Shown here: in pieces, positions 21,982-48,414 of the stretch
Layout: every line of letters begins with the position of its first letter
Numbering within the stretch: the stretch's first letter is position 1
Assembly: GCA_963707635.1 (NCBI GenBank)
Contig: OY970173.1
Location: 224,001-288,000, forward strand
Origin: Candidatus Latescibacterota bacterium
GTDB lineage: Bacteria > Krumholzibacteriota > Krumholzibacteriia > WVZY01 > JAKEHA01
Direction: 5' to 3'
Length of the DNA stretch: 64,000 nucleotides
Translations under genes and position numbers: made by a program
Notes under the pieces: model-generated
Seen by the model: the letters and a program-made list of their open reading frames with translations, nothing else
The model's database searches: none
Told to the model about the DNA's origin: nothing

Positions 21982-22298
21982 TGGCTCCCCGGGTAGGACT
22001 CGAACCTACAACCCTGCGGTTACAAGGGTTCCCTTTGTTGCCAAAGGGCTCGGACTATCTCATCACCCGTCCCGAATGGCTCAGGCGAGGGTGTCGGGCG
22101 CTGATGGGGCTTATCGGTTGAGAATCCTCATCCCCTAGTCTCTGCACGTTCCCGCCTACTTGGTCATCTCATTCGGCGGGCTTCGCTCAGGATTACCCTG
22201 TAAGGGCTTCCCTGAATTCACCCGATTTTTCACCAACGGTCTCCCGTTGGAGCTGCATTCGAATACAGCCGCATGCTCTACCATTGAGCTACCGAGGA
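21982..22298 (-). tRNA. trnN: tRNA-Asn(GTT), split by a group I intron (exons 22265-22298 and 21982-22022)
   Basis: Spliced sequence TCCTCGGTAGCTCAATGGTAGAGCATGCGGCTGT|TAACCGCAGGGTTGTAGGTTCGAGTCCTACCCGGGGAGCCA folds into a full cloverleaf with anticodon GTT, discriminator G and encoded CCA. Confidence 0.95.
22023..22264 (-). ncRNA. Group I self-splicing intron (IC-like), 242 nt, no homing endonuclease ORF
   Basis: P1 GCUGU/GCAGC with U.G at the splice site; P2 CCAACGG-GAGA-CCGTTGG; P3 TCGGGTG/CGCCCGA; AATTCAGGGAA..AATCCTGAG; GTGCAGAGACT..GATAGTCC (P7); P9 CCCTTTG-GCAA-CAAAGGG; terminal G. Confidence 0.93.
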
Positions 22299-22310
22299 AC
22301 CTTGGGGCTC

Positions 22311-32273: not shown

Positions 32274-32981
32274 TTACCCGGACTTCCGGGATTTCGACGT
32301 CCGGGTCGCGCCCTTCTTGCCCGCGCTGTCGGACTTCTTCTTCGACCTGTCTTTCTTGTCGTCGGTCTCGCGCTTCGTGTCCTTGGCTGGCTTCGCCTTC
32401 TTTTCTTTCTTGTCTTTCTTGGCCTTCTTGTCCTTGTCCGCGCTGTCGCCTTCCGCCGGCTTGGAACGACCGCGAGGCGCCTTGACCTGCGTCTCGGGCC
32501 CCGCTTCCTGCGGCACCGATCCGCGGATGAGCGGCTTCTTCGTCACTTCGGTGTCGACCAGCTCGAGCAGCACCAGGCGCGCGTTGTCGCCCACGCGATG
32601 ATGATCGAGCCGGATGATGCGCGTGTATCCGCCGTTTCGCTCCAGATACAGGGGCGCAATCTGGTCGAAGAGCTTGCGCAGGATTTCCGGACTGCGCACG
32701 AAGCGCCCGGCCTGGCGCCAGTGCGCGAGCGCCACGGCTTGCTGGTGTTTGGCCTCGCCGTCCTTGCCCGAGGATTGGAGGCTCGTGAACTCCTGCTGCG
32801 CGCGGTAGCCCTTCTTGGCCCGCGTGATGAGGCGTTCCGCGAAGCGGCGCGCCTCCTTGGCCTTCGGGCCGGTGGTGGTGATGCGTTCAGACTGGAACAA
32901 CGATGTCACCATGCTGCGCATCAGCGCGCGGCGGTGCGACGCCGTCCGTCCAAGTTTGCGATGGTCTACCCGATGTCTCAT
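32274..32981 (-). CDS. rplQ: 50S ribosomal protein L17 with internal insertion and Lys-rich tail
   Basis: RKLGRTASHRRAL..ERITTT..KAKE..GGYTRII. Confidence 0.97.
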   Translation of the reverse strand: MRHRVDHRKLGRTASHRRALMRSMVTSLFQSERITTTGPKAKEARRFAERLITRAKKGYRAQQEFTSLQSSGKDGEAKHQQAVALAHWRQAGRFVRSPEILRKLFDQIAPLYLERNGGYTRIIRLDHHRVGDNARLVLLELVDTEVTKKPLIRGSVPQEAGPETQVKAPRGRSKPAEGDSADKDKKAKKDKKEKKAKPAKDTKRETDDKKDRSKKKSDSAGKKGATRTSKSRKSG

Positions 32982-33005: not shown

Positions 33006-33097
33006 GAGGAACTCACGTCCTTTTCCGCTCATGCACTTCGCGCGCGATAGTTGAAAGCGCGCCTCGTGAAATCGCGTCGAAGGGCCGTTCGTTCCTC
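33006..33097 (-). repeat. Dispersed structured repeat, copy A (rpoA-rplQ gap)
   Basis: Reverse complement of 33024-33081 nearly matches 48023-48080; closed by GAGGAAC/GTTCCTC stem. Confidence 0.85.
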
Positions 33098-33111
33098 CCC
33101 GAAACAAGCCC

Positions 33112-34137
33112 CTACGAATTCTCGACCGTGAGCTCCGGCTCGTCGATCATCGGCCGCGGCGCCTTGCCGCCGAGAATGGCCTCGACGTCCATGCCCAGGT
33201 GGAGGCCCATGCCGTTGAGGATCTCGGTGATCTCCTTCAGGCTCTGCTTGCCGAAGTTGCGGTACTTGAGCATCTCGGCCTCCGAGCGCCGAACCAGATC
33301 GCCGAGCGTCTTGATGTTCGCGCGGCGCAGGCAATTCCCGGAGCGCACCGACAACTCCAGCTCTTCCACGCTCCGGCCCAGAATGTCGCGCAGCCGCTCG
33401 TGCTCCTCGTCCACCACCGGCTCGGCCGCCTCCATCGGAGACTCGTCGAACTGGATGAACAGCAGCATGTGATCCTTCACGATCTTCGCGGCGTAGCCGA
33501 GCGCGTCTTCCGGGCGCGTGCTGCCGTTGGTCGTGATTTCGAGAATCAGGCGATCGTAGTCCGTGCGTTGTCCCACGCGAGTGTTCTCGACCGTGTAGGC
33601 GACCTTGCGCACCGGAGCAAAGTTTGAATCCATCGGAATCAGACCGATGTCGTAATCGCCGAGGTCGTGGCTTTCGGCGGGCATGTAGCCCCGGCCGTGC
33701 CCGACCAGAATGTCCATCTCGACCTCGACCGGCTCCGACGCGGTGCAGATCACGAGCTCCGGATTGATGATGTCCATGTCGGCGTCGGGGCTGATGTCGG
33801 CGGCCGTGATCGGCCCCACCTTGCCCACGCGGAGCTTCAGGAACCTGGGCTCGTCGCCGTGCATCACCACGACCAGCTGCTTCAGATTGAGCACGATCTC
33901 GGTAACATCCTCCATCACGCCGGGGATGTTCGACAACTCGTGCAGCACTCCCTTGATGCGCACCGCGGTGACCGCGGCGCCCTGAATCGAGGAGAGCAGC
34001 GTGCGTCGCAGCGCGTTGCCGAGGGTGAGGCCGAAGCCCCGCTCGAGCGGTTCGACCACGAAGCGTGCGGTCGTGTGCGTGCTGGTCGCGGGGTCGCGAA
34101 CAACTTCCTTGGGCATGAGCAGATTGCGCCATTTCAT
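33112..34137 (-). CDS. rpoA: RNA polymerase alpha subunit
   Basis: EPLERGFGLTLGNALRR; ELELSVRSGNCL. Confidence 0.99.
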   Translation of the reverse strand: MKWRNLLMPKEVVRDPATSTHTTARFVVEPLERGFGLTLGNALRRTLLSSIQGAAVTAVRIKGVLHELSNIPGVMEDVTEIVLNLKQLVVVMHGDEPRFLKLRVGKVGPITAADISPDADMDIINPELVICTASEPVEVEMDILVGHGRGYMPAESHDLGDYDIGLIPMDSNFAPVRKVAYTVENTRVGQRTDYDRLILEITTNGSTRPEDALGYAAKIVKDHMLLFIQFDESPMEAAEPVVDEEHERLRDILGRSVEELELSVRSGNCLRRANIKTLGDLVRRSEAEMLKYRNFGKQSLKEITEILNGMGLHLGMDVEAILGGKAPRPMIDEPELTVENS

Positions 34138-34176
34138 GTTTCGTTTCCTCCTCTTGCGGGGACGCGCGAGTGCGGC

Positions 34177-34806
34177 CTACTTCGAATACAGCTCGACGAT
34201 GAGCTGCTCCTCGACCGGCACCGGAATCACATCGCGGCTTGGAATCTCCACGAAGGTCCCCTCGAGCTTGTTCGTGTCCAGATCCAGATAGGGAACCGAC
34301 TGCCGCGCGTCCACGTTCTTGATCGCCTCGCGAATGATGAACAGGTCGCGGCTCTTTCCGCGCGGCGCCACCCGGTCACCCGGTGAAACCAGGTAGCTCG
34401 GGATGTTGACCCTCTTTCCGTTCACCTCGAAGTGGCTGTGACGAATCAGCTGCCGCGCCTGCGCGCGCGAGGCGGTGAAGCCGAACCGATAGACGACGTT
34501 GTCCAGGCGCCGCTCGAGCATCTGGAGCAGGGTGGTGCCGGTGATACCCTTCTGCTGCGCCGCCTTCTCGAAGTAGTTGCGGAACTGCCGTTCCAGCAAC
34601 CCGTACGTCTTGCGGAGTTTCTGCTTTTCGCGCAACTGCATGTTGTACTTCGAAGACTTGCCCTTCCGCGTCTTGCCGTGCTGGCCCGGCGGGAAGTTGC
34701 GCTTTTCGATGGCGCACTTGTTGGAATAGCAACGGTCCCCCTTGAGGAAGAGCTTCTCCCCCTCGCGGCGGCACAACTTGCACTTGGCGTCACGATACCT
34801 GGCCAT
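34177..34806 (-). CDS. rpsD: 30S ribosomal protein S4
   Basis: [26 protein letters not shown]. Confidence 0.99.
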
Positions 34807-34817
34807 TCATTCCTCCG

Positions 34818-35216
34818 TTATACACGCCGCCGCTTGCGGGGACGGCATCCATTGTGCGGAATCGGCGTGCAATCTTTCACCGCGGTAACATCGAGGCCCG
34901 CCGCGCGCAGCGAACGAATCGCCGCCTCGCGGCCCGCGCCCGGGCCCGTAATCCAGGCTTCCACTTTTCTCATGCCCAACTCGAGGGCTTCACGCGCGCA
35001 GCGCTCGGCGGCGAGCTGGGCCGCGAACGGCGTGCTCTTCCGGGAGCCCTTGAACCCCACCATGCCGGGGCTGGCCCACGACACCACCGCACCGCTCATG
35101 TCGGTGATGGTGACAATCGTGTTGTTGAACGTCGACTGGATGTGGGCAACACCCGCGACGTCCACCTTCCGGTTCTTCTTCTTGCTTCCCGGCCGTTTCG
35201 GCTTCTTGTCCGTCAA
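34818..35216 (-). CDS. rpsK: 30S ribosomal protein S11
   Basis: [28 protein letters not shown]. Confidence 0.99.
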
Positions 35217-35282
35217 CGCGTTCCTCCTTGACCGCGGCGCGTGCAGTGCGCGGCGCGGTGCATCGATTTCACTTCCCGGCGG

Positions 35283-35669
35283 CTATGCTTTGGACGGCGC
35301 AGCCTTCCGCTTGCCGACACCCGGCCGCACCTTCGGGCCCTTGCGCGTGCGCGCGTTGGTGCGCGTCCGCTGGCCGTGCACCGGCAGATTCACGCGATGC
35401 CGGCGCCCACGGTAGCAGTTGATGTCGATCAATCGCTTGATGTTGAAGCTCAGCTCCGTTCGGAGCTCACCCTCCACCTTGAATTCGTTCTCGATGATAT
35501 TGCGGAGCTTGATGCCCTGGTCCTCCAGGAGATTCTTCACCCGGGTGTTGGGATCCAGGCCCGCCTTCGAGCAAATCATGTTCGCCGACTTCGGCCCGAT
35601 GCCGAAGATGTACGTCAGAGCAACGACCACTCGCTTCTCGTTCGGAATGTCTACGCCTGCGATTCGCAC
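35283..35669 (-). CDS. rpsM: 30S ribosomal protein S13
   Basis: [29 protein letters not shown]. Confidence 0.99.
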
Positions 35670-35741
35670 TGTCGACCGGTCTCCTTTCCTCGCCGGACCA
35701 CCGGGTGCCCGCCCCGACGGGGCGGCACGCGGCCGTCGCTC

Positions 35742-35855
35742 CTAGCCCTGCCGCTGCTTGTGTCGCTTGTGCTTGCAGATGACGCGAAGCACGCCCTTGC
35801 GCCGGATCAGCTTGCAATCCGGGCAGATCTTCTTGATTGATGTTCTGACTTTCAT
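35742..35855 (-). CDS. rpmJ: 50S ribosomal protein L36 (Zn-binding type)
   Basis: Below ORF-track cutoff; manual translation [37 protein letters not shown]. Confidence 0.97.
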
Positions 35856-35871
35856 GTCGCTTCCCTCGCGA

Positions 35872-36090
35872 TTACTTGTACCGATAAACGATCCGGCCCT
35901 TGGTCGGATCGTACGCCGAGATTTCGAGCGTCACCCGATCCCCCGGCAGGATCTTGATAAAGTGCATTCTCATCTTGCCCGACACGTGGGCGAGCACTAC
36001 GTGCTTGTTCGCGAGCTCGACCCGGAACATCGTGTTGGGCAGGGCCTCCACCACGGTCCCTTCGACTGTAATCGTGTCCTCTTTTGGCAC
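35872..36090 (-). CDS. infA: Translation initiation factor IF-1
   Basis: [30 protein letters not shown]. Confidence 0.99.
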
Positions 36091-36109
36091 ATTCCCTTTC
36101 GCCGGTTCT

Positions 36110-36853
36110 TCACCGCGTGAGAATCTTCGGGCCGTCGACGGTCACCGCGACCGTATCCTCGAAATGGGCGGACAGGGTTCGATCCGCCGTGACGATCGTC
36201 CACCCGTCTTCCAGCGTGAACACCTCGGCCGCTCCAACGTTCACCATCGGTTCGATGGCCAGGACCAGCCCCGCTTCGAGGACGATCCCCTGTCCGGGCG
36301 GGCCGAAGTTGGGAACCTGCGGGTCCTCGTGCATCCGCCGCCCGATGCCGTGCCCGACCAGCGATCGCACTACCGAGAACCCGGCCTGCTTCGCGTGCGT
36401 TTCCACCGCGTGCGAGATGTCCGTCAGGCGGTTGCCGGGTCGAGCCTGCTCGATCCCGCGCGCGAGCGCGTCCCACGTCACGTCCAGCAGGGTCTGCGCC
36501 TCGCGGCTGATCCCGCCGACCGGTATGGTTCGCGCGGAGTCGACGTAGAACCCATCCTTGAAAACGCCGATGTCGAGCCCGACGATGTCGCCCTCGCGCA
36601 GCGTGCGTTCGTCCGGGATGCCGTGGACGACTTCTTCGTTCACCGAGATGCACGTCGCCGCCGGGTACCCGTGGAACCCTTTGAACGCCGGCACCCCACC
36701 CCGCGCCAGAATCAGATCTTCGATCGCGGCGTCCAGCTCGCGGCGCGAGCGGCCCGGCCGGATGAAGTCGCGCGCGAGCTCGAAGCACTCGACCACGATC
36801 TGGCCGTTGGCGCGCATGACCGCGATCTCGGGCGGCGACTTCAGAACGATCAT
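36110..36853 (-). CDS. map: Methionine aminopeptidase type I
   Basis: C-terminal part of ORF 36110..38893 from [44 protein letters not shown]. Confidence 0.97.
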
Positions 36854-37500
36854 CCCAGCACTCGCTCGATCGTTCGCGTTACCTCGTCGACCGGCTGCTC
36901 CCCGTCGAGCTCGTGCACCATCACCCGCCCGCGGTAGTACTCCAGGATCGGCCGGGTTTGCGCCGCGTACACGCCCAGACGCCGCTCGATCGTCTCCGGG
37001 CGATCGTCCTCGCGCTGTACCAGCGTTCCTCCGCACTTGTCGCACCGTCCCTCCACCGTCGGCGGATTGGCCGTCACGTGGTAGACGGTCTTGCACTGCG
37101 TGCACGTCCGCCGACCCGACAGCCGCTCGATCAAGACCTCGCGCCCCACCTCGAGCACGAAGATAGCGTCGATCCGCTGGCGCAACTGCTCGAGGAGCCG
37201 ATCCAGCCCCTCGGCCTGGCCCACGGTCCGCGGGAATCCGTCGAGCAACCAGCCCCGCAGCGCGGGCTCGGATGCAACCGCCGCGATCGCGTCGCGCATC
37301 AGCGCCAGCACGATGTCGTCCGACACCAGCCCGCCGGCGGCCAGCACGCTCTGCACCTGCTTGCCCAGCTCCGTCTCCCGCGCCACCGCGTCGCGCAGGA
37401 GGTCTCCGGTCGAAATGTGCCGGAGTCGAAACCGGTCCCGGAGACGTTCGGCCTGCGTGCCCTTCCCGGACCCCGGCGGACCGAACAGCACCAGATTCAT
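36850..37500 (-). CDS. adk: Adenylate kinase
   Basis: GPPGSGKGTQA, HISTGDLLR, LDGFPRT, Zn-lid CxxC. Confidence 0.99.
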   Translation of the reverse strand: MNLVLFGPPGSGKGTQAERLRDRFRLRHISTGDLLRDAVARETELGKQVQSVLAAGGLVSDDIVLALMRDAIAAVASEPALRGWLLDGFPRTVGQAEGLDRLLEQLRQRIDAIFVLEVGREVLIERLSGRRTCTQCKTVYHVTANPPTVEGRCDKCGGTLVQREDDRPETIERRLGVYAAQTRPILEYYRGRVMVHELDGEQPVDEVTRTIERVLG

Positions 37501-38814
37501 CTAGCCCCGTCGCCCGCGCAGGCGTCCGTGCTTGACGAATCCCTCGTAGTGGCGCATCAACAGGTGCGACTCGATCTGGCGCAGCGTATCCAGCATCACG
37601 CCCACGACGATCAGGAGGCCGGTGCCGCCGAAGTAGAACGGCACGTTGGCCCGCCGAATCAGGAAATCGGGCAGGATCGCGATGAACGCCAGGAAGATCG
37701 CCCCGGGCAGCGTGATGCGCGTCAGAATCCGGTCGATGTACTCGGCCGTGCGCTTGCCGGGGCGGATGCCCGGGATGAAGCCGCCCGACTTCTTCATGTT
37801 GTCGGCCAGGTCCACCGGGTTGAGCACGATCGCCGTATAGAAATACGTGAAAAAGATGATGATCAGCGCGTACAGCGTGATGTAGACCACGTGCCCGGGT
37901 GACAACCACAGCGTGATCGACTGCAGGAAGGTCACGTTCGGGAACAGCGCCGCGATCGTGGTCGGAAACATGATCAACGACTGCGCGAAAATGATCGGGA
38001 TCACGCCGGCGATGTTGACGGACAGGGGAATATGGCTCGCCTGCCCCCCGTACACGCGCCGCCCGACCACGCGCTTGGCGTACTGCACCGGAATTCGCCG
38101 CTGCCCCTGGGTCACGTAAATGACCCCCGCGATCACCAGCACCATCATGAGCAGGATGAGCCCCAGCTTGAACGGCGTCATCTGGCCGAGCTGCAGGGCG
38201 CGAATCGTGTTGAGCATTTCGATCGGATAACGCGCGACGATCCCGATGGTGATGATGAGCGACATGCCGTTGCCGATGCCGCGCTCCGTGATCTGCTCGC
38301 CGAGCCACATGATGAAGATCGTGCCCGCCGTGAGGGTGAGGATCGTCAGCAGGCGGAAGCCCCACCCCGGGAACATCACCGCCGACTCGCCGCTGGGTCC
38401 GCGCATGCCCTCGAGGAACATTGCGATGCCGAAGCCCTGGATCACCGAGAGCACGACGGTGCCGTAGCGCGTGTACTGCGTGATCTTCTTGCGGCCTTCC
38501 TCGCCTTCCTTCGCCAGTTTTTCGAAGAACGGAATGACTGCCTGGAACAGCTGCAGGATGATCGACGCGCTGATGTACGGCATGATGCCGAGCGCGAAGA
38601 TGGTCGCCTTCTCGAGGTTGCCGCCCGCGAACAGGTCGTAGAGGCCCAGGATGGTTCCGCGCTGGCGCGCGAAGAACTCCGTCAGGACGGAGGCGTCGAC
38701 GCCCGGCGCCGTGATGTGGCTCCCGATCCGGTAAACCGTCAGCAGCCCGAGCGTGAACACGACACGACGCTTGAGCTCGGGGATGCTGAAAATCTCTTGA
38801 AGCTTGCTGAACAT
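37501..38814 (-). CDS. secY: Preprotein translocase SecY
   Basis: IFALGIMPYISASII; WLGEQITERGIGNG; FGGTGLLIVVGV. Confidence 0.99.
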   Translation of the reverse strand: MFSKLQEIFSIPELKRRVVFTLGLLTVYRIGSHITAPGVDASVLTEFFARQRGTILGLYDLFAGGNLEKATIFALGIMPYISASIILQLFQAVIPFFEKLAKEGEEGRKKITQYTRYGTVVLSVIQGFGIAMFLEGMRGPSGESAVMFPGWGFRLLTILTLTAGTIFIMWLGEQITERGIGNGMSLIITIGIVARYPIEMLNTIRALQLGQMTPFKLGLILLMMVLVIAGVIYVTQGQRRIPVQYAKRVVGRRVYGGQASHIPLSVNIAGVIPIIFAQSLIMFPTTIAALFPNVTFLQSITLWLSPGHVVYITLYALIIIFFTYFYTAIVLNPVDLADNMKKSGGFIPGIRPGKRTAEYIDRILTRITLPGAIFLAFIAILPDFLIRRANVPFYFGGTGLLIVVGVMLDTLRQIESHLLMRHYEGFVKHGRLRGRRG

Positions 38815-38829
38815 GTCCTACGCCGCCGG

Positions 38830-39273
38830 TCAGCCGACCAGGTTCACCTGTCCGCCGGCCTTTTCCACCGCTTCCTTCGCTTTCTGGCTGCACGCGTGCA
38901 CCGCAATCTTGAGCGGTTTCTTGATCTCGCCGTCGGCGAGCAGCTTCACCCGGTTGTTCAGGTGACGAATGAGTCCCTTTTCCATCAACGTGTCGAGGTC
39001 GACGGTCGCGTTCGCCTCGAAACGATCGAGGTCGCTCAGATTGATCACCTGGTACTCCACGCGGAACAGGTTGGTGAACCCGCGCTTGGGCAGGCGGCGC
39101 TGGATCGGCATCTGCCCGCCTTCGTACCAGGGATGCGTCGTGTTGCCGGTGCGCGACTGCGAGCCCTTCGACCCGCGGCAGGACGTCATGCCGTGGCCCG
39201 AACCGGGGCCGCGACCCACGCGCTTGCGCTTCTTCTTCGCGCCGGATGCCGGCTTGAGATCTCCGAGCCGCAT
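38830..39273 (-). CDS. rplO: 50S ribosomal protein L15
   Basis: RVGRGPGSGHG..YEGGQMPIQRRLPKRGF. Confidence 0.98.
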   Translation of the reverse strand: MRLGDLKPASGAKKKRKRVGRGPGSGHGMTSCRGSKGSQSRTGNTTHPWYEGGQMPIQRRLPKRGFTNLFRVEYQVINLSDLDRFEANATVDLDTLMEKGLIRHLNNRVKLLADGEIKKPLKIAVHACSQKAKEAVEKAGGQVNLVG

Positions 39274-39274
39274 G

Positions 39275-39466
39275 CTAACGCACCTCCTCGACGCGCACGA
39301 GGTGCCGCACCTGCTGGACCATGCCGCGGATCTGCGGCGTGTCGGTCTTGACCAGCGTCTGGTAGCAGCGGCGAAATCCCAGCGCCTCCATGGTGAGACG
39401 GTGCTTGGGGACGGCGCCGATGGTGCTGCGCACCTGCGTGATACGGATCTGTTTGACCTTAGCCAT
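39275..39466 (-). CDS. rpmD: 50S ribosomal protein L30
   Basis: [20 protein letters not shown]. Confidence 0.97.
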
Positions 39467-40103
39467 TCTTGGCCTCGACTTCCTTGGCCTCGATACTGAA
39501 GAGCTGGTTGATCGAAATGCCGCGGCGCTTGGCGACGTCGCGGGCGCTTTCGAGCTGCTGCAACGCGGTCATCGTCGCCTTCACCAGATTGTGCGGGTTG
39601 GTCGACCCCAGCGACTTGGCCAGCACGTCGCGCACGCCCGCCGATTCCATGATCGCGCGCACCACGCCGCCGGCAATCACGCCGGTGCCCGGGGTGGCGG
39701 GCTTGAGCATCACCCGGCCGGCGCCGAACTTGCCGACCACCAGAAACGGGATCGTCCCGCCCATCATCGGAACCCGGATCATCGAGCGCTTGGCGTTCTC
39801 GCCGGCCTTGCGAATCGCGTCGCTGATTTCGTTCGACTTGCCCAGGCCCACCCCGACGCGGCCCATGCCGTCGCCGACGCACACCAGCGCGTTGAAGCTG
39901 AAGCGGCGTCCGCCCTTGACGACCTTCGCCACGCGGTTGACATACACGGTGCTCTCGATGTACTCCGGACCGCCGCGCTCGCGCTCGGGTCTGGGTCCGC
40001 GCCGCTGGCGATCATCGCGCCCACGGCCGGGGCCGCCGCCGCCACGGGCGGGGCGACGATTGCGATCGTTCTGCTGCGGGGTCGTGCCTACGGTTTCAGC
40101 CAC
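39459..40103 (-). CDS. rpsE: 30S ribosomal protein S5
   Basis: [24 protein letters not shown]. Confidence 0.98.
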
Positions 40104-40130
40104 TTTCGACGTCCTCCGTCGATTCGGGTG

Positions 40131-40590
40131 CTAGAATTCGAGCCCGTGCTTGCGGGCCGACTCGGCCAGCGCAGCGACGCGCCCGTGATAGAGATACCCG
40201 CCGCGATCGAAACACACCTTGCCCACGCCCTTCGCTTTCGCGGCTTCGGCCAGCAGGCGTCCCACTTCGCGCGCCAGCGTCGTCTTGCGACCGCTGGCGG
40301 CTTCCTTCTCCGCCTTCTCGCCCTTCTTGCCCTTCTTGCCTTCGGGCTTTGCGCCCTCGGCCTTCGCGGCGGCTGGCGGGCTTCGCGCCCGGCTCCGCCT
40401 CGAGCTTCAGGCTCGACACCGACAGAAGCGTCTGTCCCGCAGTGTCGTCGATCAGCTGCGCATAGATGTGGTGGTTGGAGCGAAACACGCAGACGCGCGG
40501 CCGCTCGGGGGTTCCCACCACCCGGTTGCGAACCCGTTGGTGCCGGCGCCAGCGCTTGTACTCGCTCGGATTTCCGAATTTCTTTCTCAT
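40131..40590 (-). CDS. rplR: 50S ribosomal protein L18 (apparent extra base near 40374; Lys-rich insertion)
   Basis: [24 protein letters not shown] in one frame; C-terminal [47 protein letters not shown] in another. Confidence 0.93.
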
Positions 40591-40623
40591 GATCGTCTGA
40601 CCTCTCGACGCGTCCCGGCCGGG

Positions 40624-41169
40624 CTAGGTGGAGCCCACCGCGGACTTGCCGGCCTTGCGCACGATGTGCTCGTCGGAATACTTGATACCTTTGCCCTTGT
40701 ACGGCTCCGGGCGCCGAACCGCGCGAATCTCGGCCGCCACCTGGCCGACCCGCTGTCGATCGATGCCGGAAATCCGGATCTTGGTCGGCTCCGGCGTCTC
40801 GACCGTGATGCCCTCCGGCACGGAGAAGTTCACCAGGTGCGAGTACCCGATGGTGAGCACCAGCGTCTTGCCCTTGGCTTCCGCCTTGTAGCCCACCCCG
40901 ACGATCTCCAGATCCTTGGCGAAACCGCTCGTGACCCCGTGCACCATGTTGTTGAGGTGCGCGCGCGTGGTGCCGTGCGCCGCCCGGACCGACTTCTCGT
41001 CGCCGGTGCGGGTGACGGCGAGCGTGCTGCCTTCCTGCGCGACCTTGCAGGTCGACGGAACGTCGAGCGAGAGAGACCCCTTCGGCCCCTTGACCGTCAC
41101 CGTCGACGCGGCGATCGTGACCGACACACCCGCCGGGATCTCTACCGGCTTTCTTCCAATTCGCGACAT
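40624..41169 (-). CDS. rplF: 50S ribosomal protein L6
   Basis: MSRIGRKPV; RPEPYKGKGIKY. Confidence 0.99.
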   Translation of the reverse strand: MSRIGRKPVEIPAGVSVTIAASTVTVKGPKGSLSLDVPSTCKVAQEGSTLAVTRTGDEKSVRAAHGTTRAHLNNMVHGVTSGFAKDLEIVGVGYKAEAKGKTLVLTIGYSHLVNFSVPEGITVETPEPTKIRISGIDRQRVGQVAAEIRAVRRPEPYKGKGIKYSDEHIVRKAGKSAVGST

Positions 41170-41211
41170 ATCAAACCGTCCGTTCTCTCTCCGGGAGCGC
41201 GATGGCCGCGG

Positions 41212-41610
41212 CTACCAGACCTCACACATTACTTCGCCGCCGATGCCGCGCTTGCGGCATTCGCCGTCGGTGATGATCCCCTGCGACGTCGAGACGATGG
41301 CGATGCCGAAGCCGCCCAGCACGCGCGGGAGCTGCGTGCGCGGCGCGTAGATGCGCCGGCTCGCCTTGCTCACGCGGCGCGATCCGCTCATGACCGCCGT
41401 GTTCTCCCTGGTGTACTTCGGGTACAGCCGCAGGAGTCCCTGGCGCTCGTCCTCGATGTACTTGACGCCCTTCAGGTATCCGGCATCGAGCAGGATCTTG
41501 CTGATCTGTGCCTTCACCCGCGAGGCGGGAATGTCCACGTGCTTGTGCTTCGCCCGCGCGGCGTTTCTCAGCCTCGCGAGGTAATCGGCAATCGGATCGG
41601 TCATCGACAT
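41212..41610 (-). CDS. rpsH: 30S ribosomal protein S8
   Basis: MTDPIADYLARLRNA; GIAIVSTSQG..GGEVMCEVW. Confidence 0.99.
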   Translation of the reverse strand: MSMTDPIADYLARLRNAARAKHKHVDIPASRVKAQISKILLDAGYLKGVKYIEDERQGLLRLYPKYTRENTAVMSGSRRVSKASRRIYAPRTQLPRVLGGFGIAIVSTSQGIITDGECRKRGIGGEVMCEVW

Positions 41611-41628
41611 TGCTTTTCTCCTGTTAAC

Positions 41629-41727
41629 GGCGGAGCGCGTCAGTGCGTTCGACGCGATTTCCGCAGCGCGTTTTCAACAGCTTCACGCGCGAGGACCATG
41701 AGCGGAGAACGCACTGCGCACTCCGCC
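41629..41727 (+). repeat. Dispersed structured repeat, copy B (rpsN-rpsH gap)
   Basis: Core TTCGACGCGATTTC..GCGCGT..ACGCGC..CATGAGCGGAGAA closed by CAGTGCGTTC/GAACGCACTG and GGCGGAG/CTCCGCC. Confidence 0.8.
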
Positions 41728-41731
41728 ACTT

Positions 41732-41917
41732 CTACCAACTCGCTTTGACGACTCCCGGAACTTCGCCCATCAGGGCGAGATCGCGGAAGCAGATTCGGCA
41801 CAGTCCAAACCGGCGCAGATACGCGCGTGACCGGCCGCACTTGTTACAGCGGTGGTACGCGCGCACCTTGAATTTCGGGCGCCGCTTGGACTTCACAATC
41901 CACGATTTCTTGGCCAC
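41732..41917 (-). CDS. rpsN: 30S ribosomal protein S14 (type Z, Zn-binding)
   Basis: [23 protein letters not shown]. Confidence 0.98.
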
Positions 41918-41946
41918 GCGTTCCTTCCTCGTTCGCCGCGTCCGCG

Positions 41947-42489
41947 CTAGTTCTTGCGGAACGGCATTTTCATGTGCGTCAACAGCGCCAACGCTTCCTC
42001 ATCCGTGCGCGCCGACGTCACAATCGTAATGTCCATGCCGAAGACCTGCACGATCTTGTCGTAATCGATCTCCGGGAAGATGATGTGCTCCTTGACGCCC
42101 AGCGTGTAGTTCCCGCGCCCGTCGAATCCCCGCGTCGGCACACCGCGAAAGTCGCGGATGCGCGGGAGCGAGAGGTTCACCAGCCGGTCGTAGAACTCGT
42201 ACATGTGCTCACGGCGCAGCGTCACCTTGCACCCGATCGGCATGTTTTCGCGCAGCTTGAACGCGGCCACCGAGACACGCGCCCGGTTGAGCCTGGGTTT
42301 CTGCCCGGTGATCAACCCGAGGTCGCTCATCGCCGCGTCCACCAGCTTGGCGTTGGCCACGGCCTCGCCGACCCCCATGTTGACCACGATCTTCTCCATC
42401 CGTGGCACCTGCATGACGTTCTTGAACCCGAACTCTTTGGTCAGGGCCGGGATCACTTCCTTCTCATACACTTCCCGAAGTCTCGCCAT
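41947..42489 (-). CDS. rplE: 50S ribosomal protein L5
   Basis: [24 protein letters not shown]. Confidence 0.99.
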
Positions 42490-42503
42490 CGCTCAATCTC
42501 CCG

Positions 42504-42821
42504 CTACTCGTTCGACAACATTTCGTTGCACGCCCCGCACACGCGGACCTTCTTGCCCTGCAGCTCGCCGGTTCGCGTGCGCGCGGGCTTGCCGCATTTC
42601 GGGCACACCAGCATCACATTCGAGATATGGATCGAGGCCTCCTTCTCGACGATGCCACCCGGCTGCTGCGCGGAACGCGGCTTGGTGTGGCGCTTGACGA
42701 GCTGGATCTTCTCGACGATCACGCGGTTCTTGTCCGGAATCACCATGATCACCTTGCCGGTCTTGCCCTTGTGGTTGCCGGAGATGACTTTGACCGTATC
42801 GTTCTTTACGATGCTACGCAT
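42504..42821 (-). CDS. rplX: 50S ribosomal protein L24
   Basis: DTVKVISGNHKGKTG; EASIHISNV. Confidence 0.98.
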   Translation of the reverse strand: MRSIVKNDTVKVISGNHKGKTGKVIMVIPDKNRVIVEKIQLVKRHTKPRSAQQPGGIVEKEASIHISNVMLVCPKCGKPARTRTGELQGKKVRVCGACNEMLSNE

Positions 42822-42837
42822 GACACCTAACCCCCGC

Positions 42838-43206
42838 TCACAGCACTTCCGGCGCGAGCGAAATGATCTTCATGAATTTCTTGTCCCGGAGCTCGCGCGC
42901 AACCGGGCCAAAAATGCGCGTCCCGATGGGCTCCTGGTTGTCGTTGATAATGACCGCCGCGTTCTCGTCGAAGCGGATGAACGTCCCGTCCACGCGGCGC
43001 GTCTCCTTCTTCGTGCGCACGATGACCGCCTTCGCCACCTGGCCCTTCTTGACGAGCCCACCCGGGATGGCGACCTTGACGGACACCGAGATGACGTCGC
43101 CGATCGTCGCGCTGTTCTTCCGGGTCGAGCCGACCACCTGGATGCACTGCAACTTCTTGGCACCCGAGTTGTCGGCGACCTGAAGCATGGTCCTCATCTT
43201 GATCAT
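42838..43206 (-). CDS. rplN: 50S ribosomal protein L14
   Basis: [28 protein letters not shown]. Confidence 0.99.
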
Positions 43207-43237
43207 AGCTATTACCTGCTTCTCTCCAGGCGGGCGA

Positions 43238-43516
43238 CTACTTCGCGCGCTCGATAACTTCGATCAGCCGCCAGCGCTTGGTCTTGCTCAAGGGCCGCGT
43301 CGACATGACGAGCACCTTGTCGCCGATCTGGCACGTGTTCTCGGGGTCGTGCGCGTAGAGCTTGGTGGTGCGCTTGATGTACTTGCCGTACACCGGGTGC
43401 TTCACCAGGCGCTCCACCGTGACCACGATGGTCTTGTCCATGCGATTGCTCTTCACCAGGCCGACGAACGTCTTGCGCCGCACCGGCTTTGCAGTCGTGT
43501 TTGCTTCGGTCATCAT
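43238..43516 (-). CDS. rpsQ: 30S ribosomal protein S17
   Basis: [23 protein letters not shown]. Confidence 0.98.
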
Positions 43517-43522
43517 TCCACC

Positions 43523-43747
43523 TTACCTGCCGGCGCGTTGCCGCGACGACGGCTCCTTGCCGGTCTGCTTCTGGGTGAGGATGGTGTTGGTGCGTGCGAT
43601 CTCGCGGCGCAGCGCACGAACTCGCAACGGATTCTCCAGCTGGCGCAGCACCAGCTTGACGCGCAGGTTCGCGAGCTCGTCGAGCAGCGCATCGTGGTGC
43701 GCCTGGAGCTCGACGGCCGTCAGGTTCCTCATGTCTTCCGCCTTCAT
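43523..43747 (-). CDS. rpmC: 50S ribosomal protein L29
   Basis: [14 protein letters not shown]. Confidence 0.95.
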
Positions 43748-43750
43748 CGC

Positions 43751-44167
43751 CTATTCCTCCACGTCGCGCTGGACGAACTTCGTCTTGCAGGGGAGCTTGG
43801 AGGCCGCCAGCTCGAGGGCGCGCTTCGCGACGTCGGCGGCGACGCCTTCGAGCTCGAAGAGCACGCGCCCCGGCTTCACGACCGCAACCCAGTACTCCGG
43901 GTTCCCCTTGCCTTTTCCCATCCGGGTTTCCGCCGGCTTGACCGTCACGGGCTTGTCGGGGAACACGCGGATCCACAGTTTCCCCTGGCGCTTGATGTGA
44001 CGGGTAATCGCCACGCGCGCCGCCTCGATCTGCCGGTTCGTGATCCACTGCGGCTCCATCGCCTTCAATCCATAGGCGCCGAAAGCGATGGTTGCGCCCC
44101 GCGTCGCCTGTCCGCTCATGCGACCGCGCTGCTGCTTGCGGTGCTTCACGCGCTTCGGCATCAACAT
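43751..44167 (-). CDS. rplP: 50S ribosomal protein L16
   Basis: [19 protein letters not shown]. Confidence 0.99.
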
Positions 44168-44170
44168 GGC

Positions 44171-44842
44171 TTACCGGACCCCCTCTGCGGCCTTGCTCAG
44201 CGACTTCTTGAACTCCTCGGGGAATATCTCCCCCTTGTAGATCCAGACCTTCACACCCACGGTGCCGAAGGTGGTGTGCGCGGTCGACCGCGCAAAGTCG
44301 ATGTCGGCGCGCAGCGTGTGCAGCGGCACCCGGCCCTCGTGGTAACCCTCGCGGCGGGCGATCTCGGCGCCGTTGAGGCGGCCCGAGCACTGCACCTTGA
44401 TTCCCTGTGCGCCCATGCGCATCGCGGACTGGATCGTCTTCTTCATGGCGCGGCGGAACGCCACCCGCTGCTGGAGCTGCATCGCAATGTGCTCGGCGAC
44501 GAGCTGGGCGTTGAGTTCGGGTTTCTTGACGTCCTTGATGTTGATCTGGACGTCGCGGCGGCACATCTGCTTGAGCTCATCGCGCAGCAGGTCCACTTCC
44601 GAGCCCTTGCGCCCGATGACCATCCCCGGACGCGCGGTAAAGATATTCACCGTCGCCTTGCCACCCGACCTCTCGATCTCGACGCGCGCCACACCGGCCT
44701 TGAACAGGCGGCGCTTGATGTAATCGCGCACCTTGATGTCCTCGTCGAGCCACCTCGAATACTCCTTCGAGGCGAACCAGCGGGAGTCCCAGGTTCGGTT
44801 GATACCGAGGCGGAAGCCGACCGGATTGGTCTTCTGTCCCAT
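44171..44842 (-). CDS. rpsC: 30S ribosomal protein S3
   Basis: [26 protein letters not shown]. Confidence 0.99.
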
Positions 44843-44872
44843 CAGCGGGACCTCCGCGTTGCCACACGTCGA

Positions 44873-45229
44873 TCATGCATTCTTGGGTTCCTCCGTCAGC
44901 GACACCGTCACCTTGATATGGCTGCTGCGCTTGCGAATTCGATACGCCCGGCCCTGCGCGCGCGGACGAATGCGATACATCGTCTTGCCCTCGTCGATCA
45001 GGATCGACTTCACGACCATGTCCTCCGCGGCGACGTGGCCCCCGTGCTTGTTGACGAGGTTGTGCATGGCCGACTGGATGGTCTTGCTGACCGCCTCCGA
45101 CGCGGCGCGCTTGGTGAAGCGCAGCAGCGTGAGCGCGCTGTCCACCTTGCGGCCCCGCACCAGGTCCGCGAGCTGGCGGACCTTGCGCGGCGGATAGCCG
45201 ACGTGCTTCGAAACTGCGTAGGCGTCCAT
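44873..45229 (-). CDS. rplV: 50S ribosomal protein L22
   Basis: PRKVRQLADLVRG; RPRAQGRA. Confidence 0.98.
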   Translation of the reverse strand: MDAYAVSKHVGYPPRKVRQLADLVRGRKVDSALTLLRFTKRAASEAVSKTIQSAMHNLVNKHGGHVAAEDMVVKSILIDEGKTMYRIRPRAQGRAYRIRKRSSHIKVTVSLTEEPKNA

Positions 45230-45263
45230 GATTCCGTCCTTAGGAGCGCGAGCGCTGCCGCGA

Positions 45264-45560
45264 CTACGCGGCGGGCTTCTTCGCGGCCTTTTCTTCCTTG
45301 GTCTTGAACGTGTGTCCGCGGAACGTCCGCGTCAGCGAGAACTCGCCCATCTTGTGACCGACCATGTTCTCGGTGATGTACACGGGTATGAACTGCTTCC
45401 CGTTGTGCACGGCCAGGGTATGGCCGACCATCTCGGGCGAAATCGTCGAGCGCCGCGCCCACGTCTTGAGCACGCGCTTCTCGCCCGTCTGGTTCATCGA
45501 AGTGATCCGGCCCAACAGCCGTTCGTCGATGAACGGTCCTTTTTTCAAGCTCCTCGGCAT
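45264..45560 (-). CDS. rpsS: 30S ribosomal protein S19
   Basis: [16 protein letters not shown]. Confidence 0.99.
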
Positions 45561-45569
45561 ATCGACCCC

Positions 45570-46406
45570 TTATCCCTCGTGTTTCTTCTGGCGCCGGCGC
45601 ACGATCAACCGCGAGCTCGGCTTCTTCCGCTTGCGCGTCTTGCGACCATCCGGCAACCCCCACGGACTGCACGCCGGGCGGCCGCCGCTGGACTTGCCCT
45701 CGCCGCCACCCAGCGGATGGTCGACCGGATTCATCGCGACGCCGCGCACCTGCGGGCGACGTCCGAGCCACCGCGTCCGGCCCGCCTTGCCCGACACGAC
45801 GTTTTCGTGGTCGAGATTCCCGACCTGGCCCACGCTCGCATAGCACTCCTTGCGCACCATGCGCATTTCACCCGACGGAAGGCGCAGGGTCGCGTAGTTC
45901 CCGTCCTTCGCCATGAGCTGGGCGAACGAGCCCGCGGAACGCACCAGCTGCCCGCCCTTACCCACGACCAGCTCCACGTTGTGGACCATGGTGCCGACGG
46001 GGATCTTCTCCAGCGGCAGCGCGTTGCCGGGCTTGATGTCGGCCTCGGGCCCCGCGAGCACGCTGTCGCCGACTTTGAGCTCGTTGGGCGCGACGATGTA
46101 GTTCTTCTCTCCGTCGGCGTAGAAGAGCAGCGCGATGCGCGACGTGCGATTCGGATCGTACTCGATCGACACGACCTTCGCGGGGATGCCCACCTTGCGG
46201 CGCTTGAAGTCGATCACGCGGTAGCGGCGCTTGTGACCGCCGCCGCGGCGGCGCATCGTCTGACGTCCGGTATTGTTCCGCCCGCCCGACTTGCTCAACG
46301 GCGCCAGCAACGACTTCTCCGGAGTGGTGGTCGTGATCTCCGCAAAGTCCGAAACCGTCCGGTACCGGAGCGTCGGCGTGATCGGATTGAACTTCTTGAT
46401 ACCCAT
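45570..46406 (-). CDS. rplB: 50S ribosomal protein L2
   Basis: [24 protein letters not shown]. Confidence 0.99.
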
Positions 46407-46418
46407 CGCGATCCTTCC

Positions 46419-46727
46419 CTAGGCGATGTCGAACGCCTCGATGGTCTGACCCTCGGCGAGCGTCACGTACGCCTTCTTCCAGTCCGAGCGAGCGCCGGCG
46501 TACCGGCCGGACTTGTTCATCGCCACCGCGATCTTGCCCGCGTAGTTGGCGGTGCGAACGTCCTTCACCTTGACGTTGAAGAGTTTCTCCACCGCCATCT
46601 TGATCTCGCGCTTGTTCGCCCTGCGATCGACGCGAAAGATGTAGCGGTTCTTGAGCTCTTTCATGATCGCGCCCTTTTCGGTGAGCATCGGGCGTTCGAT
46701 CACGAAACGAATGTCACGGTTCTTCAC
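46419..46727 (-). CDS. rplW: 50S ribosomal protein L23
   Basis: GTG start overlapping the rplD stop; RPMLTEK..ANKREIK..WKKAYVTL. Confidence 0.97.
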   Translation of the reverse strand: MKNRDIRFVIERPMLTEKGAIMKELKNRYIFRVDRRANKREIKMAVEKLFNVKVKDVRTANYAGKIAVAMNKSGRYAGARSDWKKAYVTLAEGQTIEAFDIA

Positions 46728-47356
46728 GACGCGTACACCTCTTCCATGCGCCGGAGCGCGGCGTCGGTCAGGACGATCTTGTCGGCCCAGACCACGTCGT
46801 AGGTGGTCACGGAGTCGGCGATCGCGATGCGCACGCCGGTGACGTTGCGCGCCGACTTGATGGTCGGACCGTCCGCCTTGTCCAGGATGACCAGCGCCTT
46901 CTTGAGCTTGTGGGCATCCATGTTCTTCAAGACTGAGGTGAAGGCCTTGGTCTTCGGGGCCGCGAACTCGAACGCCTTGATGACCAGGATGTCGCCGTCT
47001 TTGGCCCGCGCCGTGAGCGACGACTTGAGCGCCACGCGCTTGACCTTCTTGTTCACCTTCAGACGGTGGTCGCGCGGGTGCGGCCCGAACACCGTCCCGC
47101 CGCCGCGCCACAGCGGCGAGCGAATCGTGCCCGCGCGGGCGCGCCCGGTGCCCTTCTGGCGCCACGGCTTCTTGCCGCCGCCGCGCACGTCGGAGCGCTC
47201 CTTGGTGTTGACCGTGCCCTGCCGCTGGTTCGCCAGGTAGGCGACCACCGCCTCGTGCACGGCGAACTGGTTGACCTCGGCCTCGAACAGGCTCTTCGGC
47301 AACTCCACCGTTCCCGCCCGTTTGCCGTCCTTCTCAAAACAAGCCGCGGTTGCCAT
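46724..47356 (-). CDS. rplD: 50S ribosomal protein L4
   Basis: [21 protein letters not shown]. Confidence 0.98.
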
Positions 47357-47360
47357 CCGA

Positions 47361-47981
47361 TTACCTCGCGTCCGTGCGCACGATGACGATTCCATTGTTG
47401 GCGCCGGGGATGCTGCCCTTGATGAACAGCAGGTTGTTCTCCGCGTCGATCTGCACCAGCGTCAGGTTGCGCGTGGTGCTGCGCGCTCCGCCCATGCGCC
47501 CGGGCATGCGCTTGCCCGGGAAAGTGCGCGACGGATACGCCGACGCGCCGACCGAACCGGGCTCGCGATAGTTCTTGTTGCCGTGGGTCTTGCGCCCGCG
47601 CTGGAAGTGGTGGCGTCGAATCGTGCCCTGGAATCCCTTACCCTTCGACGTGCCCGTCACGTGCACGACCTTGGCCCCCTCGAATACCTTCACGTCGAGC
47701 GTGTCCCCGACCTTGAAAGCGGACGGGTCGGCGACGCGCACTTCGCGCAGGATCCTCCGCGGCGTGACGTTCGCCTTCTTCGTGTGCCCCAGCTCCGGCT
47801 TGGTCATGCGGGACTCCTTGGCTTCGTCGAAGCCGATCTGGATCGCCGCGTAGCCTTCCTTGTCGAGCGTCTTCACCTGGATGATCGGGCACGGCCCGGC
47901 CTCGACCACCGAGACCGGCACGACCCGGCCGGACTCCTCGAACAACTGCGTCATCCCAATTTTCTTACCGATCAGCATCAT
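47361..47981 (-). CDS. rplC: 50S ribosomal protein L3
   Basis: GKKIGMTQ; SKGKGFQG..RH.F..G..THG. Confidence 0.99.
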   Translation of the reverse strand: MMLIGKKIGMTQLFEESGRVVPVSVVEAGPCPIIQVKTLDKEGYAAIQIGFDEAKESRMTKPELGHTKKANVTPRRILREVRVADPSAFKVGDTLDVKVFEGAKVVHVTGTSKGKGFQGTIRRHHFQRGRKTHGNKNYREPGSVGASAYPSRTFPGKRMPGRMGGARSTTRNLTLVQIDAENNLLFIKGSIPGANNGIVIVRTDAR

Positions 47982-48006
47982 GGTAGTTCAGCACCTTCTC
48001 ACTCGA

Positions 48007-48098
48007 GCCGGGCACATTGGTGTTCGACGCGATTTCACGAGGCGCGCTTCCAACGTTTGCGCGCGAAGTGCATGAGCGGAGAACACAATGGGCACGGC
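48007..48098 (+). repeat. Dispersed structured repeat, copy C (rpsJ-rplC gap)
   Basis: TTCGACGCGATTTCACGAGGCGCGCTTCCAACGTTTGCGCGCGAAGTGCATGAGCGGAGAA closed by GTGTTC/GAACAC, CATT/AATG and GCCG/CGGC. Confidence 0.85.
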
Positions 48099-48105
48099 GC
48101 TGTCC

Positions 48106-48414
48106 CTACGTTTTGATCTCGATGTCCACGCCCGCCGGCAAAACCAGCTTGGTGAGGTCATCGATCGTCTGCTGCGTCGTGTGCGTCAAGTCGATCATGC
48201 GCTTGTGAATGCGAATCTCGAACTGCTCCCGAGACTTCTTGTTCACGTGCGGCGAACGAAGCACCGTGTACACCGAGCGCCGCGTCGGAAGCGGAATCGG
48301 CCCGATGACGCGCGCGCCAGTACGTCGCGCCGTGCGGACGATATCGTCCGTCGTGCGATCGAGCGTTGCGTGCTCGTACGCCTTCAGTTTGATGCGGATT
48401 CTCTGGCCTTCCAA
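48106..48414 (-). CDS. rpsJ: 30S ribosomal protein S10
   Basis: [29 protein letters not shown]. Confidence 0.99.

Follow-up and report, generated by a model that had tools for sequence, protein, structure and literature searches.

A dispersed extragenic hairpin repeat with a conserved mismatched apex and site-specific stems in the ribosomal operon and throughout the genome of a Latescibacterota bacterium: a candidate REP-like mobile DNA without RAYT

The present work deals with a hairpin element of ~95 nt, three copies of which occur in the ribosomal superoperon within a 64,000-nt stretch of the genome of a Candidatus Latescibacterota bacterium (G000:C1:224001-288000, G000 being the genome under study; contig OY970173.1 of the assembly GCA_963707635.1), referred to below as the window. 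A preliminary description, made from the letters of the window, saw in them a structured element inserted three times in the superoperon; the three copies are indeed there, but this understated the family, which is dispersed over the whole genome. The genes at the three gaps, named by NCBIfam, are all located on the minus strand, and the features concerned are as follows:

33006-33097, minus strand: copy 1, subtype A, in the rpoA-rplQ gap; core sense to the mRNA, outer stem imperfect
33024-33078, minus strand: conserved core of copy 1 (55 nt), three short helices between G·A-rich loops, apical loop TTTCAAC...
33112-34137, minus strand: rpoA, upstream of copy 1 (rplQ, 32274-32981, downstream)
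41629-41727, plus strand: copy 2, with an A/B hybrid core (the commonest type in other genomes), in the rpsN-rpsH gap; antisense to the mRNA, outer stem ~20 bp
41651-41706, plus strand: conserved core of copy 2 (56 nt), compensatory GCGCGT/ACGCGC stem
41732-41917, minus strand: rpsN (zinc-type S14), upstream of copy 2 (rpsH, 41212-41610, downstream)
48007-48098, plus strand: copy 3, subtype A, in the rpsJ-rplC gap; antisense to the mRNA
48026-48080, plus strand: conserved core of copy 3 (55 nt)
48106-48414, minus strand: rpsJ, upstream of copy 3 (rplC, 47361-47981, downstream)

The positions and orientations of the three copies are those first reported, the copies beginning, respectively, 14, 4 and 7 nt past the stop codon of the upstream gene. 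Each of them folds into one long hairpin consisting of the outer stem, three short helices with purine-rich loops between them and an open terminal loop; the shared core, the tandem GA/GA loops and the change from GCGCGC/GCGCGC to GCGCGT/ACGCGC are all present, and the outer stems of the three copies, unrelated in sequence, are nevertheless paired. As DNA hairpins compared with shuffled sequences, the core strands of copies 1, 2 and 3 have z scores of -1.6, -5.4 and -3.9, that of copy 1 not being significant by itself. All three gaps measure 121-130 nt in G000; in the element-free relatives, the rpsJ-rplC gap measures 8-67 nt (excluding G019 and G022, where another hairpin is found), the rpsN-rpsH gap 67-126 nt (excluding G013) and the rpoA-rplQ gap about 20-77 nt (after correction of a 57-nt start offset). 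The hairpin in the rpsJ-rplC gap of G019 (locus L025) and G022 (L026), both from another genus, is a different one of ~85 nt with a long outer stem and a similar TTTCAAA loop, and the models of the present family did not match it. It may be added that RplQ (window 32274-32981, minus strand) possesses a long C-terminal extension in a frame of 235 aa, with a partial match, below the cut-off, to the 'sunset domain' L17 model. The named RpoA sequences nearest to that of the window are 68-76% identical to it and belong to an uncultured bacterium and to Latescibacteria/Krumholzibacteriia bins, from which the host is probably a member of Ca. Krumholzibacteriota.

An iterated profile search identified 72 copies in G000 at E<1e-6, plus a degenerate 73rd one, and no match at this threshold in the reversed genome, the best control match reaching 2.4e-5. 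By motif, 18 copies belong to subtype A, 10 to B, 21 to C and 23 to D, two mosaic copies—one of them copy 2 of the window—having been assigned to the nearest subtype. Every copy combines a conserved, covarying, G·A-mismatched apical core of ~55 nt with a closing stem that is specific to its site and ~20 bp long (mean 20 bp). The arms of the subtype A copies are just 33% identical to each other, yet they fit their own partners: a pairing score of at least 20 was obtained with the own partner arm for 27 of the 28 A/B copies, against 9 of the 756 cross pairings. In subtypes C and D, the inner 12-14 bp are common and the outermost bases differ; with their arms more alike, these two subtypes (21 and 23 copies) look, from their sequences, like young expansions. 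Four paired forms of the middle helix occur in the core—TCC/GGA (73), CAC/GTG (34), CGC/GCG (19) and CCC/GGG (2)—accounting for 128 of the 133 copies parsed by pattern among 188 distinct ones, most D copies being unparsed. RNAalifold, applied across the four subtypes, recovered just the 6-bp inner stem, the arms being unalignable, and the covariance model R1 resulting from it is nearly sequence-only. The many copies, the covariation in both core and arms and the lack of any Rfam match bear out the original suggestion of a new REP/REPIN-like family (REP, repetitive extragenic palindrome).

The internal loops vary by subtype, being 3x3 in A and C, 1x3 in B and 2x3-4 in the hybrid, with the tandem GA lost in D. 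The kink-turn consensus has a 3-nt bulge on one strand beside tandem G·A pairs and none on the other; the K-turn-like motif once suspected here was rejected, the loop geometry not being maintained across the subtypes. Promoter-like and dif-like readings of the apical loop were dropped, its consensus being too variable, and a copying of the outer arms from the flanking host DNA remained anecdotal (2 of 52 stems overlapping a coding end by at least 3 nt, plus the locus L305).

Concerning the ends, no fixed flank, end motif, shared flanking promoter or tail was found among the 72 copies, a GTAG/CGTC tag near either end was present in 8 of them, and half-core models detected in G000 no divided form whose loop contains a gene. 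Target duplications of 2-8 bp showed no excess over shuffled flanks in the 72 copies; at empty/filled pairs, 6-10% diverged, none was clear, and old duplications may have decayed. An ordinary miniature inverted-repeat transposable element (MITE), moved by a DDE or IS110 transposase, would likewise be small, non-coding, hairpin-forming and polymorphic among relatives. Since conservation is lowest in the terminal repeats of the element, however, the conserved ends of a MITE are not seen here, and with no such duplication, no IS110 in G000 and no multi-copy transposase-like gene among the called genes (DDE families not having been searched singly), this origin is scarcely credible.

The placement of the copies was judged against 2757 genes predicted by our own simple gene caller. 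The start lies from -5 to +20 nt of the stop codon in 49 of the 67 copies having an upstream stop, the stems beginning mostly at +0 to +20. As many as 45 copies occupy co-directional, 22 convergent and 5 divergent gaps (n=72), corresponding, relative to gaps of at least 100 nt, to odds ratios of 5.3 for the convergent and 0.2 for the divergent ones. With respect to the nearest upstream gene, the core is sense in 26 and antisense in 41 cases, whereas with respect to replication, according to the GC skew, 30 copies are leading and 42 lagging; near the inferred terminus the family is depleted (7 copies vs 18 expected). Wherever two copies are adjacent (ten pairs), they are of different subtypes and stand head to head, C being paired with D in nine cases and with B in one. 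The flanking proteins (n=116) are housekeeping or surface proteins, and the codon adaptation of the upstream genes is above average (0.683 vs 0.645). The presence of three copies within ribosomal-protein operons could recall an autoregulatory site; this explanation, which the preliminary description had already disfavoured, is refuted by the 69 of 72 copies found beside unrelated genes and by the orientation at each of the three gaps, which differs among species.

The main rival explanation attributes to the outer stem a role in the mRNA, i.e. that of a stem-loop in the 3' untranslated region or between cistrons, which would stop exonucleases, serve as a substrate of RNase III or delay terminating ribosomes, and which gene conversion or an old mobiliser would have distributed over highly expressed operons. 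The position just behind stop codons, the excess of convergent over divergent gaps and the codon adaptation of the upstream genes all suit it, as does the ability of the ~20-bp stem to form in both orientations, and a contig from an RNA library of a ~95% relative spans copy 2 without gaps (DNA carry-over being possible). There are also precedents, as far as the sources describe them, in the processing of TRIT and Correia elements (PMC13714241) and in REPs found at most 15 nt from stops (PMC12306157). On the other hand, the asymmetric core is conserved in both orientations, and a U-tract follows the stem at just 6 of 89 transcript-side ends, which led also to the rejection of an intrinsic terminator. 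Together with the wobble pairs considered below, this makes the mRNA role, by itself, a possible yet rather doubtful explanation of the family; it may, however, coexist with another one or be a side effect of the stem.

It should be noted that G000:C1 contains a second repeat family of about 51 sites (e.g. 484503-484597 and 33105-33171, in genome coordinates), none of them in the window. Its design is the opposite one, the ends being conserved and the inner hairpin (38-121 nt) variable; it occurs in mixed orientation, in 13 convergent vs 1 divergent gap and with no RAYT. At position 1040951, it fills the gap in which a relative (locus L248) holds the core-conserved element.

As to the distribution, the covariance model at E<=0.01 matched 14 of the 16 other genomes of the genus, one of the 6 other genomes of the family and 7 of the 13 genomes of the sister family, the matches in G003, G006 and G011 being weak. 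Outside these two families, none of the 125 sampled genomes of the phylum gave a match at E<=1e-4, 26 candidates per genome having been scored. In a ribosomal-protein tree, the element-poor G003, G006, G010 and G014 form the sister group of G000 (support 0.97); with 0-2 weak matches each, they have therefore lost the element. One of them, G006, has another long hairpin ahead of rimP. Metagenomes yielded at least 122 stretches, the outer stem being present in 49 of the 113 distinct ones among the matches listed, whereas the exact B/D pattern was absent from the genome_contigs collection (which possibly does not include close genomes). No match was found in the plasmid and phage collections, and three patterns gave 2, 0 and 21 matches in viral contigs, none of which contained a whole element. 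Rfam 15 matched neither the window copies at the gathering score nor 9 further copies, from seven loci, at E<=1. A literature search, mostly without subscription journals and covering no supplements, retrieved no description of the family, which is thus undescribed as far as searched.

The history of single sites is best seen in the rpsN-rpsH gap, filled in 10 of 15 congeners, eight times antisense and twice, in G001 and G015, flipped to sense. The copy is present on both sides of the genus tree, and its arms, which are homologous among the species, have changed together, which means that it is old and inherited rather than freshly inserted; in the two flipped cases a remnant of the old arm has been kept upstream. 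The rpsJ-rplC gap is filled in 4 of 8 congeners (two sense, two antisense) and the rpoA-rplQ gap in 3 of 10 (sense in G001, antisense in G008 and G012). Inversion in place has thus occurred at five loci, namely the three gaps of the window together with L205 and L280, where relatives ~90% identical carry the core in opposite orientations within the same arms. The mixed orientation of the family is consequently largely secondary, so that the three independent insertions in two orientations assumed previously are not supported, and because the orientation flips in place, its mixture alone is no proof of mobilisation in trans, which we nevertheless infer.

Cores are exchanged, too. G005 holds an A core within the rpsN-rpsH arms, the core subtype at L251 and L188 differs from that in G000, and in the ~95% relative (two RNA-library runs) the outermost arm of copy 3 is kept around a core of the copy-2 type with new inner arms. 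Gain or loss is seen at L193, L219 and L305, filled in ~90%-identical metagenome relatives, G000 having there a short gap without a prior hairpin, and in the C-D pair behind a SurA-like gene of G000, absent from 10 of 10 congeners. The new sites and the young subtypes require copying, which is thus shown indirectly. Over six orthologous pairs, identical positions number 255 of 259 (~98%) in the core and 162 of 222 (73%) in the arms, the sum omitting L280 (the same locus as L266) as well as L251 and L188 (different core subtype). The identity at fourfold sites is 0.78-0.81 in the four close pairs and 0.55-0.56 in the two distant ones, i.e. the core is conserved above the neutral level; even the rare CCC/GGG helix has been kept at one locus in two species. 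In assembled contigs, the only material inspected, neither an inversion within a population nor an excision joint was seen.

Conservation in place, locus-specific variants included, also agrees with a domesticated chromosomal site, i.e. a cruciform arm read by a host protein of the gyrase, Pol I or nucleoid type behind strongly transcribed genes, new copies of which would arise by conversion-like events alone. BIMEs are described as binding gyrase, IHF and Pol I (PMC2817692), and the retention of the rpsN-rpsH copy across the genus, the enrichment in convergent gaps, the depletion near the terminus and the lack of a mobile enzyme among the 163 neighbour proteins scanned point in the same direction. 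The loss of the element in G003, G006, G010 and G014, however, shows it to be dispensable, and the lineage-specific expansions of C and D and the new sites need a copying route, both of which make such a site an unlikely explanation.

The searches for a mobiliser revealed none. Y1/RAYT (PF01797) is absent from all 17 genomes of the genus and present in 2 of 41 overall, with no copy at those two loci; with a completeness of 68-97% in most relatives, the loss of a RAYT is possible. RVT_1 occurs in 6 of 36 genomes of the order, yet neither in G000 nor in the eight other genomes with more than 10 matches (G001, G002, G005, G012, G015, G023, G026 and G027). G000 lacks the four-helix-bundle PF05635 and PF13366, and its tyrosine recombinases comprise a XerC/D-like pair and a C-terminal fragment of IntI. 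IntI is found in 8 of 36 genomes of the order, none of them high-copy for the element, and GIY-YIG in all those searched. No element copy was found at the fetched Y1, RT, HNH, IntI and GIY-YIG loci, nor any transposase or integrase beside the copies among the 116 neighbour proteins in G000 and 47 further ones. A scan for the HUH motif gave no plausible protein, and the Y2_Tnp search, whose own control was silent, is without weight. The partners proposed in the preliminary description—RAYT/Y1, GIY-YIG, DUF559 and HNH—were thus each examined and none is linked to the copies; more generally, no link to the mobiliser families tested was found, other transposase and recombinase families not having been searched and most relatives being incomplete.

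Several loci met in the course of these searches deserve a mention of their own. A frameshifted DUF559 gene at G000:C1:3198817-3199127 (minus strand) is the sole one in 36 genomes of the order. A gene for endonuclease V adjoins a copy in L320 (G026) and L325 (G027), both of the sister family, and has no homologue in G000. Five repeated C-terminal fragments of what we take, by likeness, to be a comM-like gene lie at G000:C1:779830-792546 with foreign-looking genes between them, presumably as integration scars, and a C-terminal fragment at G000:C1:806296-806427 is presumably, again by likeness, that of an integron-type integrase. Apart from the element, the window contains a group I intron (RF00028, 95.5 bits) that splits the anticodon of a tRNA-Asn(GUU) gene after GT and before T (~21990-22308, minus strand; intron 22031-22274). 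The interrupted gene was missed by ARAGORN, and an intact tRNA-Asn is present at G000:C1:1664314; a limited literature search found nothing specific on such an interruption of the tRNA-Asn(GUU) anticodon. ARAGORN also detected a tRNA-Sec gene at G000:C1:1667450-1667544.

With regard to the strand that folds, wobble pairs, which the scoring scheme does not reward, are informative. In the outer stems, the core strand has 63 G·T against 14 A·C pairs (33 vs 12 without subtype C, in which G·T is partly fixed), and 43 metagenome copies have 36 against 12. Among copies in co-directional gaps, the antisense ones show 30 G·T vs 4 A·C (19 vs 3 without C) and the sense ones 10 vs 4 (6 vs 4 without C), whereas in 151 other intergenic hairpins, taken as a control, the transcript strand is favoured, 97 vs 25. 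The bias is thus present irrespective of transcription, and the leading strand (9:5) does not show it more strongly than the lagging one (24:7). The core strand is, moreover, the more stable one in 68 of 72 copies folded as DNA. Since the wobble of the antisense copies favours the core strand (30:4), the favoured strand there is not that of the mRNA, opposite to the control hairpins, and this counts against the mRNA role, pointing to a folded DNA strand; reading it as RNA requires an antisense transcript at each such site. The wobble bias does not, by its chemistry, separate DNA from RNA; as a strand bias, it suggests a single-stranded intermediate or a cruciform arm, in keeping with one of the two alternatives of the preliminary description, a REP/REPIN-like single-stranded-DNA element, and it is evidence that the folding strand is the element's own.

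The strand-specific fold, the covarying helices and the tandem G·A loops would also be expected of a structured RNA in its own right, such as a small RNA or a ribozyme, copied by reverse transcription. The absence of RVT_1 from G000 and the eight other genomes mentioned, of an Rfam match and of a shared flanking promoter, tail or target duplication renders this highly improbable.

Among the known systems, attC sites come to mind, in which a folded DNA strand with defined mismatches is read by its structure and which are placed just after stop codons. Their outer boxes (RYYYAAC...GTTRRRY) are conserved and their tip variable, and they stand in one orientation in cassette arrays with a linked IntI. 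The present element resembles them in its position behind stop codons and in a mismatched strand that would be read by structure, and differs from them in its conserved tip and variable ends, in its housekeeping neighbours and in the lack of a copy at the 8 IntI loci.

REPINs, in the descriptions available, have conserved REP ends, a variable inner spacer and RAYT transposases (PMC3337134, PMC2817692, PMC3733652). The element shares with REPIN, REP and BIME the ~90-100-nt extragenic hairpins in dozens of copies, in both orientations and close behind stops, as well as inverted heterodimers, vertical persistence and one copy-specific part that still pairs. Its architecture is, however, the reverse of that of a REPIN, with a conserved apex and variable ends, and it has no GTAG/CGTC end tag, no 20-40-bp unit and no Y1 transposase in the 17 genomes of the genus. 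Abundant palindromes and inverted doublets thus speak for membership in REP/REPIN, and the missing tag, conserved ends and RAYT led to its rejection. Like YPAL/RU-2 and ERIC of enterobacteria (PMC2229807, PMC2759123), it is a small, probably mobile stem-loop with an internal palindrome and with empty and filled sites; according to the same sources, these are co-transcribed with upstream genes, YPAL is directed to dyad symmetry and produces target duplications of 3-26 bp, and ERIC has TA ends. The element is GC-rich and differs from them as there described in having no duplication, no prior hairpin at clean empty sites and no Rfam, plasmid or phage match, and membership in MITEs of the ERIC, Correia or YPAL type was rejected for its ends and duplications (PMC10969869, PMC2229807, PMC2759123). 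Such repeat families in other taxa have been surveyed in PMC2267715. Finally, TRIT of Mycobacterium, for which RNase III processing has been proposed (PMC3152330, PMC13714241), is also a lineage-specific conserved hairpin narrowly tied to stops, in more than 70 copies, bidirectional and without a U-tract. As reported there, TRIT starts near -8, inside the coding sequence, and is conserved throughout, whereas the element is the longer of the two, begins at about +4 to +15, inverts and has arms specific to each site. With stems starting mostly at +0 to +20, it was not counted as TRIT, the two being set apart by description, not by sequence comparison.

Based on the above results, the element is preferably regarded, with a probability of about one half, as a dispersed extragenic hairpin repeat of one order, i.e. 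a REP-like mobile DNA without RAYT, whose mobiliser would lie outside the families tested. It would spread as a non-autonomous single-stranded DNA, its folded, G·A-mismatched core being recognised by a trans-acting protein, and polymerase template switching between the arms would flip the element and keep the arms self-complementary. The core-reading protein may also keep the resident copies under selection, which would account for the conservation of the core throughout the order as well as at single sites. In yeast, template switching between inverted repeats is described as homogenising arms and inverting spacers (PMC8604942), so that neither the matching of the arms nor the inversion needs a dedicated enzyme. 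Given this and the flips in place, the preliminary description gave mixed orientation and stem covariation more weight than they can bear.

Several points weigh against regarding the element as mobile DNA. The searches brought no mobiliser to light, the contigs showed neither an excised nor a circular form, the empty and filled states do not at each site reveal the direction of change, and insertions are marked by neither a target duplication nor a fixed motif at the ends. G·U wobble and tandem G·A pairs characterise RNA at least as much as DNA; the core strand is the more stable one as RNA, too (64 of 72 copies), and the wobble bias is weak in the sense copies (6 vs 4 without C), the copies being non-independent. 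With regard to the core conservation, 19 of the 43 compared positions are fixed by the search pattern and three orthologous pairs were omitted; gene conversion, given the exchange of cores, could explain a part of it. The position 0-20 nt behind stops, the convergent enrichment and the codon adaptation fit the mRNA role equally, and the copy ahead of rimP in G012 has a decayed core and perfect arms.

More tentatively, and with odds we consider unfavourable, the family might represent a RAYT-independent class of palindromic mobile DNA, the signal of which would be a mismatched apical fold with no need of conserved ends, invertible and rewritable in place. Its movement would be due to an enzyme family so far not recognised as transposases, perhaps a protein of the host, and selection would have retained it in the ribosomal operon throughout the genus. 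In any case, the family bears on the question of how REP-like repeats without RAYT originate and persist, and it offers a comparative case in which the same housekeeping loci carry natural alleles that are empty, filled, flipped or core-swapped, together with a fixed fold of ~55 nt usable as bait and a sister clade without the element suitable for subtractive genomics. It also teaches caution, in that perfect covariation of a long stem and mixed orientation need not imply selection on RNA or repeated insertion.

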